From: an uncultured Gemmatimonadales bacterium
Lineage (GTDB): Bacteria; Gemmatimonadota; Gemmatimonadetes; Longimicrobiales; RSA9
Direction: 5' to 3'
Length of the DNA stretch: 64,000 nt
Assembly: GCA_963798845.1 (NCBI GenBank)
Contig: CAWCUS010000003.1
Coordinates: 32,001 to 96,000, forward strand
The number at the start of each line of letters is the position of its first letter. Within the stretch, counting starts at the first letter, position 1. The translations under genes and the position numbers were made by a program. Shown here piece by piece: positions 3,182-63,230 of this stretch. Below the pieces are notes generated by a model. The model saw only the letters and a program-made list of their open reading frames with translations. It was not told the origin of the DNA and ran no database searches.

Positions 3182-6069
3182 GCACGAACGGCGACACGAT
3201 CCCCTTCACGCTCGATGGCCGGCAGATCGAGGCGCGGCCGGGCGAGACCATCCTCCAGGCGGCCGGGCGCAGCGGCATCGCCATACCGCACCTCTGCTAC
3301 ACGGAGGGCATGCGGGTGGACGGGAACTGCCGCGCGTGCGTGGTCGAGATCGAAGGCGAGCGCGTGCTGGCGCCTTCGTGCCACCGCAAGCCGTCGGCCG
3401 GGATGAAGGTGAGGAGCGCGAGCGAGCGGGCCCGCTCGTCGCAGAAGATGGTGCTCGAGCTGCTCCGCAGCGACATGCCGGAGGAGCAGTACCGCGCCGA
3501 CTCCGAGCTGGCGCTCTGGGCCGCCCACCTGGGCGTGGGCGACGGCCGGTTCCCCCGCCGTCGCCAGCCGGCGCCCGACGCCTCGCACCCCGCCATCCTG
3601 GTGCGCCTGGACGCGTGCATCCAGTGCACTCGGTGCGTGCGGGCGTGCCGGGAGGTGCAGGTGAACGACGTCATCGGCTACGCCGCGCGCGGCGCCGACG
3701 CCCACATCGTCTTCGATTTCGACGACCCGATGGGCAGCAGCACGTGCGTGGCGTGCGGGGAGTGCGTGCAGGCGTGCCCGACCGGCGCCCTCATCCCGAA
3801 GCGCATCGCGGAGCCGAACGCGGTGATGTTCCCGGTGGACGAGTCGCTCTATGCGCCCTCGCTGGCCGGCCGCGCGTCCCGTGAGGAAGAAACCGTGGTC
3901 GCCGAGGCGAGCGTGGGCGACGCCACGACCAGCGTGCCATCGCTCTGTCCTTACTGCGGCGTGGGGTGCCAGGTCACGTACCACGAGAAGGGCGGGCGGA
4001 TCACGCATGTGACGGGGCGCGAGGGACCGGCGAACCTGGGCCGCCTGTGCGTGAAGGGGCGATTCGGCTTCGACTACGTTCACAACCGCCAGCGGCTGAC
4101 CACCCCGCTGATCCGGCGGGACGGCGTGCCCAAGAACCCCGACGCGCTGGTGGACCCGATGGACTGGGCGGACACGTTCCGGGAAGCCACGTGGGAGGAA
4201 GCGCTCGACGTCGCCGCGGCCGGGCTGCGCAGGATCCTGGACGAGCAGGGCGGCCAGGCGCTGGCGGGGTTCGGCTCGGCGAAGGGGAGCAACGAGGAGG
4301 CGTACCTCTTCCAGAAGCTGATCCGTGCGGGGTTCGGCACGAACAACGTGGACCACTGCACGCGGCTGTGCCACGCGTCGTCGGTCGCGGCGCTCATGGA
4401 GATGATAGGGTCGGGCGCCGTTTCCAACCCGTTCGCCGACGTTCAGTACGCGGACGTGTTCATCGTGATCGGGGCGAACCCCACGGTCAACCACCCCGTG
4501 GCCGCCACGCTCATGAAGAACGCCGTGAAGCGGGGCGCGAAGCTGATCCACATCGACCCGCGCGCCACGGAGATCTCCCGCTTCGCCACGCACGCGTTCC
4601 ACTTCAACCCCGGCACCGACGTGGCGCTGCTGAACGCCATGCTCCACACCATCGTGGAGGAGGACCTGGTCGACCGATCGTTCATCGACGCCCGTACGGA
4701 TGGCTGGGACGCGTTCCGGTCCAACCTGACCGCCTACGCGCCCGAGGTCATGGAGCCGATCTGCGGAATCCCCGCGGAGGAGATCCGGGCCGCCGCGCGC
4801 CTCTACGCCACGGCGAAGGCGTCGATGATCTTCTGGGGCATGGGCATCGCCCAGCACACCCACGGGACGAACAATGCCCGCTGCCTGATCAACCTTGCGC
4901 TCATCACGGGCCAGATCGGCCGGCGCGGCGCCGGGCTGCACCCGCTGCGCGGGCAGAACAACGTGCAGGGCGCGTCGGACATGGGACTCATCCCCATCGT
5001 CTACACCGACTACCAGCGGGTGACCGACCCGGCCGCCCGGTCGAAGTTCGAGACGTTCTGGGGCCGGAAGCTGGACCCGGAGAACGGACTCACCGTCGTC
5101 GAGATCATGAACGCGGCGCTGCGGCGCGAGATCCGGGGCATGTACATCATGGGGGAGAACCCGGCCATGTCGGACCCCGACCTGGAGCACGTGCGCGAGG
5201 CGCTGGCCACCATGGACTGGCTCGTGGTGCAGGAGATCTTCCTGACCGAGACCGCATCGTTCGCCGACGTGATCCTCCCCGCCACGGCGTTCATGGAAAA
5301 GACGGGCACGTTCACCAACTCCGACCGGCGGGTTCAGCTGGGCCGGAAGGTGCTGGATGCGCCGGGCGAGGCGCGGCAGGACCTGTGGATCATCGCAGAG
5401 CTCGGCCGGCGGATCGGGATGGACTGGACCTACGAGGGCCCGCAGGAAGTGTGGGAGGAGATCCGGCAGTGCACGCCCAGCATGGCCGGGATCACGTGGG
5501 ACCGGCTCGAACGGGAGCACGCAGTCACCTATCCCTGCCGGAACGTGGGAGACCCCGGCACCGAGGTGCTGTTCGAGGAGCGCTTCCCGACCGGGACCGG
5601 CCTGGGGCACCTGAAGCCGGTGGACTACACCCCGGCCGCCGAGCTGCCGGACGACGACTACCCGGACGTCCTGATCACCGGACGGATCCTGGAGCACTGG
5701 CACACGGGCGCCATGACGCGTCGCGCCGAGGTGCTGGACGCCATCGAGCCGGTGCCCATGGTCTCCATGAACCCCGGCGACATGCGCGCCCGCGGCCTCG
5801 AGGCCGGCGCCACCGTGACGCTCGAGACGCGCCGCGGGCACGTGGCCGCGCTGGTCCGGCTCGACCCGTCGATTCCTCACGGCGCCATCTTCCTGCCGTT
5901 CTGCTATGCGGAGGCGCCCGCCAACCTGATGACGAACCCGGCGCTGGACCCGGACGGCAAGATCCCGGAATTCAAGTACTGCGCGGTCCGGGTCACGCCG
6001 GGCGGGAATGTCCAGCGTGTGGGCTTCGCGGCCGCCACGGCCGGGAGTGGAGCCGGGCGGACGGGCTAG
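3178..6069 (+). CDS. fdhF: Formate dehydrogenase alpha subunit (Mo/W-bisPGD, Cys-ligated)
   Basis: ATG overlaps the upstream stop (ATGA). Motifs: IPHLC..GNCRAC (2Fe-2S), CIQCTRCVRAC and CVACGECVQACPTG (2x 4Fe-4S), CPYCGVGC, DHCTRLCHA, LRGQNNVQG and IPEFKYCAV. Confidence 0.95.
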   Translation: MSTNGDTIPFTLDGRQIEARPGETILQAAGRSGIAIPHLCYTEGMRVDGNCRACVVEIEGERVLAPSCHRKPSAGMKVRSASERARSSQKMVLELLRSDMPEEQYRADSELALWAAHLGVGDGRFPRRRQPAPDASHPAILVRLDACIQCTRCVRACREVQVNDVIGYAARGADAHIVFDFDDPMGSSTCVACGECVQACPTGALIPKRIAEPNAVMFPVDESLYAPSLAGRASREEETVVAEASVGDATTSVPSLCPYCGVGCQVTYHEKGGRITHVTGREGPANLGRLCVKGRFGFDYVHNRQRLTTPLIRRDGVPKNPDALVDPMDWADTFREATWEEALDVAAAGLRRILDEQGGQALAGFGSAKGSNEEAYLFQKLIRAGFGTNNVDHCTRLCHASSVAALMEMIGSGAVSNPFADVQYADVFIVIGANPTVNHPVAATLMKNAVKRGAKLIHIDPRATEISRFATHAFHFNPGTDVALLNAMLHTIVEEDLVDRSFIDARTDGWDAFRSNLTAYAPEVMEPICGIPAEEIRAAARLYATAKASMIFWGMGIAQHTHGTNNARCLINLALITGQIGRRGAGLHPLRGQNNVQGASDMGLIPIVYTDYQRVTDPAARSKFETFWGRKLDPENGLTVVEIMNAALRREIRGMYIMGENPAMSDPDLEHVREALATMDWLVVQEIFLTETASFADVILPATAFMEKTGTFTNSDRRVQLGRKVLDAPGEARQDLWIIAELGRRIGMDWTYEGPQEVWEEIRQCTPSMAGITWDRLEREHAVTYPCRNVGDPGTEVLFEERFPTGTGLGHLKPVDYTPAAELPDDDYPDVLITGRILEHWHTGAMTRRAEVLDAIEPVPMVSMNPGDMRARGLEAGATVTLETRRGHVAALVRLDPSIPHGAIFLPFCYAEAPANLMTNPALDPDGKIPEFKYCAVRVTPGGNVQRVGFAAATAGSGAGRTG

Positions 6070-59972: not shown

Positions 59973-61136
59973 ATGAAACACCCGTATGCAACGGCAGCGC
60001 TCGCTGCGCTCATGGTCTCGAGCATCGCTGCCTGTGACAGCAATCCTTCCGGCCCCGGTAGCACCACCGACGCGCCGTTCACCGTGACCATGCAGTCGCA
60101 GAGCGCGAACGGCGGCTCGGCCATGCTGCGCCTGATGGCGAATGGGCGCGTCGCGCTGGCGAACGTCGAATCGATCACGCTTCCAATCGGAGACGTGGAA
60201 GCGCGGACGGCCGCTGGCGAGTGGGTGAGCGCGGGGACCGTGGACGAGAGCATCGACCTGTTCGGCCTTCCCGCGGACGGTGTCGTGCTACTCGACAGCT
60301 CGCTCCCGGAAGGATCGTACGACGCGCTTCGCTTCTATCTGAGCGGCGATCCGACCATCACCCTCGCCGAGGACGTCACGGTCGGCAGGACGACGTACGC
60401 GGCCGGAACGCACACCCTGGTGATCCCGAGCGCGGACCAGAACGGCATCCGCCTCGCGGCGAGCTTCGACGTGGGACCCGAAGGGCAGGACCTCACCGTC
60501 CTCTTCGACGGCGACCAGACCGTGAACCACGTCACTGCCACCGGCTCCGGGAAGATCATGATCGCCCCCGTACTCGAGGTCCGGAACCAGGAAGGCGAGG
60601 ACGTCGGCGGGATCGATGAAGGCGAAGGCGAGGGTGCCGTCCAGTTCGCGGACTCCGTCGCCTCCACCATCGAGAACGGCCTCACGCTCGCCGACGGCAC
60701 GGTGGTCCTCATCGACGAGGACACCCGGATCGAAGGCGACATCCTGAGCCTCGCCGCCGTCGCCGACGCCCTCGCCAGCGGCGAAGGCGTCTACGCCGAA
60801 GGCGTCGGCTCTTACGACACCGACGGCGCGTCCATCATCGCGAGCACCATCGAGTTGGAGGCCGAGAACGAGCCCGACCACCTCGGCGGTTCCGTGGGTG
60901 AGGTCAATCTCGAGGCGGGCACCTTCACCGTCGTGAACGACTCCGAAACCACCACCGTCGTCATTGCCGACGACACCGAGCTCAGCTTCGAGGACGGCCT
61001 CGCCGATCTCCAGGGCGTCATCGATGCCATCGGCTCCGGCACCACCGTCTACGTCGATGCCGAAGGTGCATTCCAGAGCGACGGCACCTTCGCCGCCAGC
61101 GAGGTCACGTTCAACACGTCCGCCGCGAGCGACTGA
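59973..61136 (+). CDS. Acidic lipoprotein with DUF4382-like and two DUF5666-like domains
   Basis: Lipobox IAAC; IDLFGL...LPEGSYDALRF...IPSADQNGI...VLFDGDQTV..TGSGK.MIAPV; two repeats of the pattern VVID.DT...V.AEG. Confidence 0.75.
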   Translation: MKHPYATAALAALMVSSIAACDSNPSGPGSTTDAPFTVTMQSQSANGGSAMLRLMANGRVALANVESITLPIGDVEARTAAGEWVSAGTVDESIDLFGLPADGVVLLDSSLPEGSYDALRFYLSGDPTITLAEDVTVGRTTYAAGTHTLVIPSADQNGIRLAASFDVGPEGQDLTVLFDGDQTVNHVTATGSGKIMIAPVLEVRNQEGEDVGGIDEGEGEGAVQFADSVASTIENGLTLADGTVVLIDEDTRIEGDILSLAAVADALASGEGVYAEGVGSYDTDGASIIASTIELEAENEPDHLGGSVGEVNLEAGTFTVVNDSETTTVVIADDTELSFEDGLADLQGVIDAIGSGTTVYVDAEGAFQSDGTFAASEVTFNTSAASD

Positions 61137-61149
61137 ACGGAGGCGGGAT

Positions 61150-61196
61150 GAAAAGAGAACCCCCGGCGCCGGATAAGATCCGTTGCCGGGGGTTCC
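61150..61196 (-). terminator. Intrinsic terminator oriented for a minus-strand transcript
   Basis: Stem GAACCCCCGGC...GCCGGGGGTTC (61157-61195), followed on the minus strand by TCTTTTC. Confidence 0.75.
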
Positions 61197-61440
61197 ATTG
61201 TACTGGCGAGTTCGGGTTTTCTCGTTTCGGTGGCAGTGCGTTTGGCGCACGCCCTCGCCCGTCCTCTTACCCTCTCCGCGCGACCCGCGGTTCAGGTTGC
61301 CCCTTGGCCTGGGGCTCCGACTGCGGCCAGTCACCTCACAGTCGGCTCGTCGGTTCCGAACTCCCAACGAGCGCCCCCGTCGAGCGTCCTCTCGGGAAGC
61401 GACGGAAGAGGCCTCGGTCGCTGGCCTGCTGTCCGCCTGA
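61150..61440 (-). ncRNA. Candidate ~290-nt structured non-coding RNA of unknown family
   Basis: Seven adjacent stem-loops plus a terminator, lying between a promoter-like element and a U-tract; no convincing CDS. Confidence 0.6.
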
Positions 61441-61444
61441 ACAC

Positions 61445-61473
61445 AAGATGCAATCGCGCAACCGCCGATGCAA
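61445..61473 (-). promoter_or_regulatory. Candidate sigma70 promoter of the ncRNA (TTGCAT-N17-CATCTT)
   Basis: The minus strand reads TTGCAT cggcggttgcgcgattg CATCTT, immediately upstream of the hairpin array. Confidence 0.5.
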
Positions 61474-61503
61474 GGATTTCTTTTGTCGCTGTAACTGCAT
61501 TAG

Positions 61504-61695
61504 CACCAACGTCTTACGAAATCAGCATCCACAGATGCGGAAAACCGCGGACAGCCACATCGCCGCATCCGCCCCACCACCAATGACTTCGGAGTTTGTA
61601 ACAGATGTGATCCACACGATTTCTGAAGTTCTCCACTACCAACGACAGGGTTTTCCCCACACGATGCCCCGGATTTCCACAGAGCCGGTGGAAAG
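61504..61695. promoter_or_regulatory. Lower-GC tract with an IHF-like site and a cluster of DnaA-box-like 9-mers
   Basis: CACCAACGTCTTA (61504-61516) matches 11/13 of WATCARNNNNTTR. Box-like 9-mers: GCATCCACA 61525, TTTTCCGCA (minus) 61536-61544, TGATCCACA 61608, TTCTCCACT 61629, TTCCCCACA 61653, ATTTCCACA 61673 and CTTTCCACC (minus) 61687-61695. Confidence 0.45.
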
Positions 61696-61778
61696 ATGCC
61701 CCTTCGCCGCAGCCGCATCTCACCGCTCAGTCCGCGCTTTCCCGTTCCTGGCGCGTCGGGCGGACGGTGCAGAGGCGC

Positions 61779-63230
61779 TCAGCTGCCGAGCCCCTCCTCG
61801 ACGATGGCCTCGCGGGCGATCTGCTCCTCGAGGCGCTCTTCCGCGGAGAGTTCGGGGACGCGCCAGCGCTCGCGAACGAACCAGCCGAGAGCCAGGAGTG
61901 CGCCCATGACGTTGGAGATGGGATAGGCCCACCAGATCCCCTGCTCGCCGAGACCGCCGCGGGAGGAGAGCGTCCAGGCGAGGGGGAAGAGGAAGACCCA
62001 GAGGGAGATGACGGTGATCAGGAGCGCGCTGCCGGTGCGTCCGGCGCCGCGGAGGGAGCCGGTGGTTACCTGCTGGACGCCGAGGAACCCGAAGGAGAGC
62101 GCCATGATGTGGATGAATCGGGTCCCCACCCGCACGACCTCGGGGTCGCCCGGGACGAAAGCGCGGGTAATGGGCGCGGCGAGGAAGAAGAGCAGGATGC
62201 CGGCGGCGGTCATCCCGGTGAACGCCACGGCCATGGCGGTGCGGGCGGTTGCCCGCGCCCGGTCCGGGGCTCGCGCGCCAATGTTCTGGCCGACGAGGGT
62301 GGTTGCGGCCATGGAGAGTCCGAGGGCGGGAATGATGATGAAGCTGAGGATGCGGGTCCCGATGCCGTAGGCCGCGACGACGGTCGTCCCGAAGCCAGTG
62401 ACCAGGAGCATCATGACGGAGAAGCCGAGGCCTCGCGCGGACTGCTCGAGAGAGGAGGGGAGCCCGAGCTTGAAGATGCGTGAGACCAGGGCCAGGTCGG
62501 GCACGAGATCCCGCCGATGGAGGTGAATGCCGAACCGGCCGGTGGTGAGCACGCGGATTCCGACCACCGCCGCGAGGCTCTGGGTCGCGACGGTGGCGAC
62601 GGCCGCCCCTGCCACGCCGAGCTCGGGGAACGGTCCCATCCCCAGGATGAGGACCGGGTCGAGGAAGAAGTTGAGCAGGACGGTGCCCGCGACGATGAAG
62701 AGCGGGGTCCTCACGTCGCCCACGCCCCGCATGAGTGACTGGACGACGAAGTAGAGGAACACTGCAACGAGGCCGAGGAAGGATATGGCGAGGTAGCTGG
62801 TGGCGAGGCGTCCCACTTCGGGGTCGGGAGCGAAGCCCCGCATGATCGGCCCGGAGATGTAGTAGCCGAGGACCGAGAGCCCGATGGACACGGTGCCGAC
62901 GGCCAGAAGCGTCTGCGCGGCGACGTGGTTCACCGCCCGCATGTCGCCGGCCCCGTAGTACTGGGCGACCAGGATCGCCCCGGCGATGGACAGACCTCCG
63001 CCGAGCGAGATGATCACGAACAGAACGGGAAAGCTCACGGAAACGGCGGCCACTGCGGCGGCGCCGAGGCGGCCTACCCAGAACGTGTCGATGAGCTGGT
63101 ACACCGTCTGGAGGACGTTGGCCGCGACGATCGGCACGGCCAGCGCGAGGAGCGCCTTCCAGATCGGCCCCGTGGTCAGGTCACGGCGCCCTCCGCCGCG
63201 GCCGGCTCCCGGCTGCCGCGCGCCCCGCAT
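61779..63230 (-). CDS. MATE-family efflux transporter
   Basis: DLTTGPIWKALLALAVP, DTFWVGRLG, RGVGDVRTP, LNFFLDP and VGQNIGA. Start estimated. Confidence 0.93.
   Translation of the reverse strand: MRGARQPGAGRGGGRRDLTTGPIWKALLALAVPIVAANVLQTVYQLIDTFWVGRLGAAAVAAVSVSFPVLFVIISLGGGLSIAGAILVAQYYGAGDMRAVNHVAAQTLLAVGTVSIGLSVLGYYISGPIMRGFAPDPEVGRLATSYLAISFLGLVAVFLYFVVQSLMRGVGDVRTPLFIVAGTVLLNFFLDPVLILGMGPFPELGVAGAAVATVATQSLAAVVGIRVLTTGRFGIHLHRRDLVPDLALVSRIFKLGLPSSLEQSARGLGFSVMMLLVTGFGTTVVAAYGIGTRILSFIIIPALGLSMAATTLVGQNIGARAPDRARATARTAMAVAFTGMTAAGILLFFLAAPITRAFVPGDPEVVRVGTRFIHIMALSFGFLGVQQVTTGSLRGAGRTGSALLITVISLWVFLFPLAWTLSSRGGLGEQGIWWAYPISNVMGALLALGWFVRERWRVPELSAEERLEEQIAREAIVEEGLGS

Follow-up and report, generated by a model that had tools for sequence, protein, structure and literature searches.

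A candidate family of structured RNAs with three covarying long-range pairings in the class Gemmatimonadetes

We analyzed a stretch of 64,000 nucleotides (nt) (here, the window) from contig CAWCUS010000003.1 of an uncultured Gemmatimonadales bacterium (assembly GCA_963798845.1; genome G000). Positions 61149 to 61439 of its minus strand very probably hold a member of a real and new family of trans-acting structured RNAs of about 290 nt. A preliminary description of the locus, made from the letters of the window, had proposed an independently transcribed structured RNA belonging to no class that it recognized. That proposal is supported by a conserved promoter, a conserved terminator, covariation, and variable flanking genes. 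As far as we have searched, the family is confined to the class Gemmatimonadetes of the phylum Gemmatimonadota. It is uncatalogued, with no Rfam 15 family and no counterpart in the literature searched.

An RNA gene with its own promoter and terminator

The RNA gene lies in an intergenic gap (window positions 61137 to 61778). It matches the covariance model built for the family (R1; 295 positions, 80 pairs) over the full length of the model. The gene, its control elements, and its neighbors are as follows.

61149-61439, minus strand: RNA gene, full-length match to R1 (177.5 bits, E = 5e-58, model positions 1-295)
61468-61473, minus strand: -35 element TTGCAT (family consensus TTGACC/TTGACG)
61445-61450, minus strand: -10 element CATCTT after a 17-nt spacer (family consensus TATCAT)
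61150-61196, minus strand: two-tier terminator hairpin GGAACCCCCGGC...GCCGGGGGUUC (stem 61196-61157) followed by UCUUUUC
Ending at 61136, plus strand: gene for a DUF4382 protein, downstream of the RNA and converging on it
Stop at 61779, minus strand: MatE gene, upstream of the RNA and on the same strand, ending 340 nt before the RNA start

The promoter TTGCAT-N17-CATCTT (61473-61445) and the long terminator hairpin with its UCUUUUC tract are both present as first described. When matches from the window's own family of genomes (f1) were aligned with their flanks, they shared a TTGAC-N17-TATCNT promoter, a start, and a terminator. A sigma-70-type promoter (TTGNNN-N16-18-NANNNT) precedes 29 of 29 f1 loci and ends 3 to 7 nt before the model start. 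A conserved promoter and terminator thus bracket a covarying structure, the arrangement looked for in a stand-alone noncoding RNA gene. The 5' end of the RNA is predicted at about 61438 +/- 2 and the 3' end at about 61151-61156. The MatE gene had been placed about 600 nt upstream, which holds for the distance from the terminator (about 630 nt) but not for that from the RNA start.

Several smaller features surround these signals. Just upstream of the -35 element, a palindrome-like TAAG-N17-GTTA (61492-61516, minus strand) may be a transcription factor site controlling the RNA; a similar element, TAAS-N12-24-BTTA, occurs in 12 of the 29 f1 promoters. Between the MatE stop and the promoter of the RNA, a spacer of 330 nt contains a cluster (61528-61681) of three same-strand TCCACA motifs, out of 25 matches in the whole window, and two copies of CCACACGAT. 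These could be DnaA-box-like sites or sites for another factor. Downstream, most f1 members carry a conserved UUGCAUCC, with no U-tract, after the terminator (columns 369-377 of alignment A1, described below; window about 61149-61156), where the window copy reads UCUUUUCA.

Conserved fold

The minus strand from 61145 to 61450 folds with a minimum free energy of -147.7 kcal/mol (z = -3.17), and none of 100 shuffled sequences folds as well; for the plus strand of the same region, z is -1.99. The conserved fold is a string of hairpins (H1 to H6), a 3' domain, and a short tail before the terminator. Three long-range Watson-Crick pairings (PK1 to PK3) connect its parts.

61401-61437, minus strand: hairpin H1; loop GCGAC (61421-61417) is the 5' strand of PK1; 12 of 13 pairs change on both sides
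61373-61400, minus strand: hairpin H2; near-invariant apical GGACGC (61389-61384); 93.5% of cells paired; 11 of 12 pairs change on both sides
61345-61372, minus strand: hairpin H3; loop GUUCGG (61361-61356) is the 5' strand of PK2
61317-61345, minus strand: hairpin H4; conserved loop GAGGUGACUGGCC; ACUGGC (61331-61326) is the 5' strand of PK3; 99.6% of cells paired
61299-61315, minus strand: hairpin H5, GCCCC/GGGGC (61315-61311 with 61303-61299) with loop AGGCCAA
61270-61296, minus strand: hairpin H6; 7-nt loop GGGUCGC, of which GUCGC (61284-61280) is the 3' strand of PK1
61208-61264, minus strand: 3' domain, comprising outer stem H7, stem H8 (GUGCG/CGCAC), and joining strand CCGAA(A) (61230-61225), the 3' strand of PK2
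61202-61207, minus strand: 3' tail GCCAGU, the 3' strand of PK3

All of the stems listed in the preliminary description are present where it had placed them. Besides the H5 stem, they are the following.

61427-61423 with 61413-61409, minus strand: AGGCC/GGCCU
61405-61400 with 61382-61377, minus strand: CCGUCG/CGACGG
Within 61372-61345, minus strand: GCUCGU/ACGAGC
About 61345-61317, minus strand: CCGACUG/CAGUCGG
61290-61276, minus strand: CCGCG/CGCGG
61259-61254 with 61210-61205, minus strand: GGCGAG/CUCGCC, enclosing GUGCG/CGCAC (61250-61246 with 61240-61236)

As conserved helices, six of them stand; CCGUCG/CGACGG does not, its bases belonging to H1 and H2. The multibranch domain suggested earlier, closed by GUUCAGG/CCUGAAC, finds no support in the alignments: positions 61442-61440 precede the conserved start, CCUGAAC already serves as the 5' strand of H6, and no covarying pair between the 5' end and H6 appeared in an unbiased scan.

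Alignment A1 contains 36 distinct full-length members, for which RNAalifold predicts 52 pairs, 35 of them with compensatory changes. A hand-curated structure of A1 combines eight nested helices (H1 to H8) with both tiers of the terminator and two of the long-range pairings. It leaves 86.1% of cells paired versus 78.0% in shuffles (0 of 500 reach it), a contrast that kinship among the sequences makes look stronger than it is. Both partners vary in 66 of its 91 pairs, compared with 44.1 expected, and the covariation score is 0.321 versus at most 0.114 with the partners slid. The terminator is paired in 96% (outer tier) and 94% (inner tier) of cells. Indels in the alignments sit in loops and follow no reading frame.

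The apical loop of H2 stands apart from the other hairpin loops. G51 and A52 are invariant in it, and no pairing partner for the loop turned up. The window RNA has nine GGA triplets in 291 nt, of which only that in the H2 loop is conserved.

Three long-range pairings

PK1 was predicted by RNAalifold itself, which pairs the loops of H1 and H6 (GCGRY with RYCGC). In A1, PK1 is paired in 36 of 36 rows, and two of its positions show 12 and 10 double changes. Inclusion of distant members (alignment A2) brought out PK2, between the H3 loop and the joining strand of the 3' domain, and PK3, between the H4 loop and the 3' tail just before the terminator, and made all three pairings unambiguous. None of the three had been noted in the preliminary description. 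In the window copy, and as variants across the family, they read as follows.

PK1, 61421-61417 with 61284-61280, minus strand; variants GCGAC:GUCGC, GCGGC:GCCGC, GGACGG:CCGUCC, CGGUC:GACCG, GCGGUG:CACCGC, and CGGACGGG:CCCGUCCG
PK2, 61361-61356 with 61230-61225, minus strand, 5 bp plus a G-A mismatch; variants GUUCGG:CCGAAC, CUUGAG:UUCAAG, UUUGGA:UCCAAG, GUCUGA:UCAGAC, GAUCAG:CUGAUC, GGUUGG:CCAACC, and AUUCG:CGAAU
PK3, 61331-61326 with 61207-61202, minus strand; variants ACUGGC:GCCAGU, GCUGG:CCAGC, GCCGG:CCGGC, and GUUGG:CCAAC, with up to 11 bp in some members

These pairings were evaluated on a larger alignment, A3 (83 matches, 70 distinct rows), which was fitted to the nested model only and not to the long-range pairings. 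Together, PK1 to PK3 leave 87.9% of cells paired in A3, compared with 82.1% in shuffles (0 of 500 reach it) and 20 to 49% when slid, and double-sided changes occur in 15 of the 20 pairs. Columns 199 and 478 (PK3), for instance, hold AU in 39 rows but GC in 25; at columns 24 and 276, CG stands in 32 rows and UA in 20. In a permutation test, the best complementarity between a loop and its own partner region was greater than in any of 200 permutations, and this held for every one of PK1 to PK3 (6.00 versus a maximum of 4.98, 6.29 versus 6.08, and 7.00 versus 6.33), and four control region pairs showed no excess. Finally, an unbiased mutual-information scan over all column pairs, with average product correction, recovered annotated pairs in 28 of its top 30, those of PK1 and PK3 included; the two exceptions are not base pairs and resemble clade markers. 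By this evidence, the three pairings are predicted to dock the 5' hairpin loops onto the 3' part of the molecule, giving a compact fold.

A further contact was considered and rejected. In many f1 members, the H5 loop (GGCCAG; window 61304-61309) is complementary to the H4 loop (CUGGCC; 61325-61331), but the H5 loop changes without a change in H4, and a conserved kissing interaction is thus not indicated. Competition of the H5 loop with the 3' tail for H4 could be an alternative state only; no covariation supports it.

Distribution in the Gemmatimonadota

The host genome contains a second copy of the RNA.

Contig C2, 257804-258096, minus strand: paralog, 232 bits with R1 (loci L011 and L104)

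BLAST aligns 257812-258061 of this copy at 72% identity. The paralog has a better promoter than the window copy (TTGACC-N17-TATCGT) and adjoins an asparaginase-family gene. In a DNA search of 41 relatives, 10 had matches, all of them in f1; multiple matches occurred in several genomes, in some cases as tandem copies.

A scan of contigs, one genome per species, for the H4-loop motif gave 73 loci, where by our own arithmetic about 69 chance matches are expected. By nhmmer, 34 of the 73 are full or partial family members, and the other 39 show no family similarity beyond the motif. All 34 members come from records titled Longimicrobiales, Gemmatimonadetes, Gemmatimonadaceae, Gemmatimonadales, or Gemmatimonadota, mostly the first of these.

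In the order, R1 finds the RNA in 80 of 151 genomes (f1, 42 of 50; f2, 31 of 50; f3, 6 of 50), a few of the weakest matches being partial or covering the terminator only. Copy number differs between families, with one to six matches per genome in f1, often in tandem, and a single one in each of the 31 positive f2 genomes. A phylum-wide sample of 151 genomes gave 24 positives, among them 9 of 16 genomes of f2, 10 of 31 of f5 (another order of the same class), and 2 of 71 of f4; none of the 29 genomes of f6 to f12 in this sample had a match. A more sensitive search of f4 returned one strong match in 40 genomes. Another 20 loci are all full-length matches (40 to 111 bits).

Some members depart from the common layout. 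In genus g27 of f2 (L141 to L143), a shortened RNA without H1 and H2, and hence without PK1, directly follows rplU-rpmA and shares their strand. Loci of the g25 type have a promoter (TTGACA-N17-TACCAT) about 50 nt further upstream; the RNA there is therefore predicted to be longer at its 5' end. In L146 (about 3990-4030), a sigma-54-like promoter, CTGGCACGGAAGGTGCA, stands immediately upstream of the RNA, and a divergent gene for an NtrC-type sigma-54 activator adjoins it, a layout resembling that of the Qrr small RNAs (sRNAs) and luxO.

Four of the genomes used are unpublished: G017 supplied L009 and L120, which are rows of both A1 and A3 and provide one GCUGG:CCAGC case of PK3; G148 supplied L128, an f1 locus discussed below; and G020 and G026 enter only the tallies. 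The main conclusions do not depend on them.

Comparison with known RNAs

No Rfam 15 family matches the window at gathering scores. In an E-value scan of 60900-61900, five chance-level matches appeared and none was to the minus-strand RNA; those to BSnc120 and sodF_sRNA are on the plus strand and cover the terminator hairpin only. A Guanidine-II-like match (60955-61002, plus strand; 19.4 bits, where the gathering score is 32; E = 0.24) lies inside the DUF4382 coding region and is taken as chance. For eight diverse members of the family, the only Rfam match at E <= 0.05 is to an unrelated eukaryotic long noncoding RNA (E = 0.042), elsewhere in one locus. The preliminary description had seen no hallmarks of transfer-messenger RNA (tmRNA), RNase P RNA, or signal recognition particle (SRP) RNA; all three are found elsewhere in the host genome (RNase P RNA on contig C6, tmRNA on C4, and SRP RNA on C1). 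We found no description of the RNA in the literature, supplementary files and subscription journals being outside the search, and a term search within PMC11109978 gave no occurrence of "Gemmatimon".

6S RNA was considered as the identity of the RNA and rejected on model score and architecture. The 6S model (RF00013) finds nothing in the window at the gathering score, in 60900-61900 at E <= 10, or in the host genome at E <= 1. A 5'-3' closing stem of the 6S type appears as a covarying helix neither in RNAalifold nor in the pair counts nor in the mutual-information scan; the new RNA has its 5' end in the local hairpin H1 and its 3' end in the terminator. Like 6S, the RNA has a stand-alone chromosomal gene with its own promoter and terminator, is usually single copy, and probably acts in trans. 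However, it is about 290 nt long, whereas 6S is about 185 nt, and it is a hairpin string tied by three long-range pairings rather than a rod with a central bubble.

Ms1 is an independently transcribed actinobacterial RNA of about 300 nt that binds the RNA polymerase core. The new RNA resembles it in length, in probable independent transcription, and in belonging to a lineage in which 6S is not detected, but its host belongs to the Gemmatimonadota and not the Actinobacteria, and it matched no Rfam family. With orphan RNAs such as the raiA motif, OLE, ROOL, GOLLD, HEARO, Bacteroidales-1, and Acido-Lenti-1, it shares restriction to a lineage, a strongly covarying, complex fold with pseudoknots, and probable transcription on its own. 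It differs from these in helix layout and host phylum and in matching none of their Rfam models (nor did it match any riboswitch model), and it is smaller than OLE, ROOL, and GOLLD.

The many hairpins, and the multiple or tandem copies in some genomes, also recall CsrB/RsmZ sponges and bacterial Y RNAs. Neither CsrA (PF02599) nor Ro60/TROVE (PF05731) was found in the host genome, which is 96% complete. Against a CsrB/RsmZ sponge stand the single conserved loop GGA and the lack of a detected CsrA gene, and against a Y RNA the lack of a detected Ro60 gene and of an Rfam match.

Alternative explanations

The genes around the RNA vary between lineages, and no gene family recurs across them. This variation bears on a cis-acting element, that is, the 3' untranslated region (UTR) and terminator region of MatE or the leader or riboswitch of a downstream gene. 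The RNA does follow MatE on the same strand in the window, and the shortened g27 form directly follows rplU-rpmA with no visible promoter. However, we exclude a MatE 3' UTR or a leader because the flanking genes vary, and each of the 29 f1 copies has a promoter of its own, tandem copies stand without genes in between, the downstream gene is convergent at 11 of 20 single-copy loci, and the next gene in the window is on the opposite strand. At no constant spot upstream of a same-strand gene of recurring function was the RNA found, as would be looked for in a leader or riboswitch, and we regard a cis-acting role as very improbable.

The one to six matches per f1 genome, often in tandem, could instead be accounted for by an RNA or repeat of a mobile element or defense system (an omega or bridge RNA, a retron RNA, or an intron fragment). 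Yet none of 126 flanking open reading frames (ORFs) scanned (80 + 46) has a transposase, integrase, reverse transcriptase, TnpB/IscB, or Cas domain, no TnpB/IscB, IS110 recombinase, or reverse transcriptase adjoins the RNA as a guide RNA of such systems would have it, and the RNA is single copy in every positive f2 genome. Where neighbors are shared, a gene for a LipB-type lipoyl ligase and/or RNase H flanks the RNA, in several f2 genomes and one f1 genome (L144, L139, L145, L147, and L128). This lipB/rnhA neighborhood may be the ancestral location of the gene, and its occurrence in parts of f2 and one f1 genome suggests vertical descent. A mobile origin is thus, in our view, even less probable than a cis-acting one. 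Least probable of all are hairpins arisen by chance in intergenic DNA rich in GC, or a gene for a small protein. Although GC-rich sequence folds well anyway, and ORFs of 40 to 359 amino acids (aa) overlap the region, the conservation and compensatory changes extend across two orders, the two longest of these ORFs (253 aa, plus strand; 359 aa, minus strand) have no Pfam family, and the indels ignore any frame. Covariation already contradicts this explanation.

A trans-acting, stand-alone RNA is the explanation that we favor, and several observations weigh against it. Its transcription is predicted from sequence; a search for sequencing runs gave three DNA metagenome runs, all of one study, and none of RNA. 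A consensus promoter and terminator scan called no site at the locus: the promoter is weak, agreeing with the consensus at fewer than 9 of 12 positions, and the hairpin of the terminator falls outside the stem, loop, and T-run criteria of the scan. The TTGCAT/CATCTT promoter is weaker than the TTGACC/TATCGT of the paralog, and with its lower score (177.5 versus 232 bits) the window copy could be the less expressed of the two. In g27, where no promoter is visible, the RNA may be cotranscribed with rplU-rpmA. The RNA is not universal in its class, f4 being essentially without it. As for structure, the H7 register is unsettled (57% paired in A1), the covariation is compatible with intramolecular and intermolecular pairing alike, and the shuffle controls, which kinship inflates, are not probabilities. 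Lastly, no finding points directly to a function or a partner.

Proposed mode of action

We suggest that the RNA would act in trans as a folded particle, and not as a cis-regulatory leader, a 3' UTR, or a simple antisense sRNA. It would most likely offer a three-dimensional surface of fixed shape to some conserved partner in the cell. That surface would include the near-invariant unpaired H2 loop GGGACG and, beside PK3, the invariant GAGG on the 5' side of the H4 loop. Because nearly all loops are engaged in RNA-RNA contacts, while the H2 loop is free and GAGG is invariant, we prefer a rigid particle recognized by a partner to an antisense sRNA. A protein-binding ribonucleoprotein (RNP) of some kind, a polymerase binder included, has about an even chance; an RNP that we cannot specify further is a fair-sized but lesser possibility, and small-molecule sensing is a slight one.

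The leading specific guess, itself rather unlikely, is a special case of this trans-acting RNA, namely, a functional counterpart of 6S and Ms1 in the class Gemmatimonadetes, which would be an abundant polymerase-binding RNA of a different fold that adjusts transcription globally. Its length of about 290 nt, its own promoter and terminator, and the extra copies in one family recall Ms1 and the two 6S RNAs of Bacillus. The distributions of 6S and the new RNA within the phylum are roughly complementary. In the phylum-wide sample, 6S was detected in f10 (4 of 13 genomes), f11 (3 of 3), and f12 (3 of 3), in which the new RNA was not found (0 of 13, 0 of 3, and 0 of 3). The new RNA occurs in f1, f2, and f5, where 6S is undetected (f1, 0 of 1; f2, 0 of 16) or weak (f5, 2 of 31). 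No genome of this sample has both, and the 6S model is silent in the host genome itself. A single weak 6S match in f3 comes from G026. However, the complementarity is partial, as the 71 genomes of f4 have essentially neither RNA (6S, 0 of 71), and the genomes are related; f4 may hold another divergent or different RNA. The 6S model also detected its target in only 4 to 5 of 14 control genomes, and a divergent 6S may be missed. The fold has neither a 5'-3' closing stem nor a large central bubble.

Somewhat less likely, the RNA could be a ribozyme, or it could assemble by itself into a homo-oligomeric particle of RNA only; some of the covarying long-range pairings would then form between molecules. 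Three such pairings in 290 nt amount to a density of folding that is typical for RNAs of the catalytic or ornate kind, and almost every hairpin loop takes part in RNA-RNA contacts. ROOL, GOLLD, and OLE are reported to assemble into homo-oligomers (PMC12286853). The covariation fits a purely intramolecular fold equally well, though, and no candidate substrate, conserved cleavage-site signature, or associated gene was found. That the RNA is a new RNA machine and not a passive protein binder is, by the same measure, improbable.

Implications

Gemmatimonadota are abundant in soils and sediments and, to our knowledge, have hardly been studied at the RNA level. The family described here would be the first lineage-wide structured noncoding RNA of this phylum besides the universal ones. 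With three long-range pairings supported by covariation in about 290 nt, it would join a small group of bacterial RNAs whose complexity of fold suggests an elaborate biochemical role, for example in catalysis, in the assembly of an RNP, or in the control of polymerase. The RNA is directly testable with the pairing map, the alignment, and the covariance model obtained here. If it should prove to be the missing 6S-type regulator of the class, it would represent a further independent instance of RNA-based control of RNA polymerase, after 6S and Ms1.

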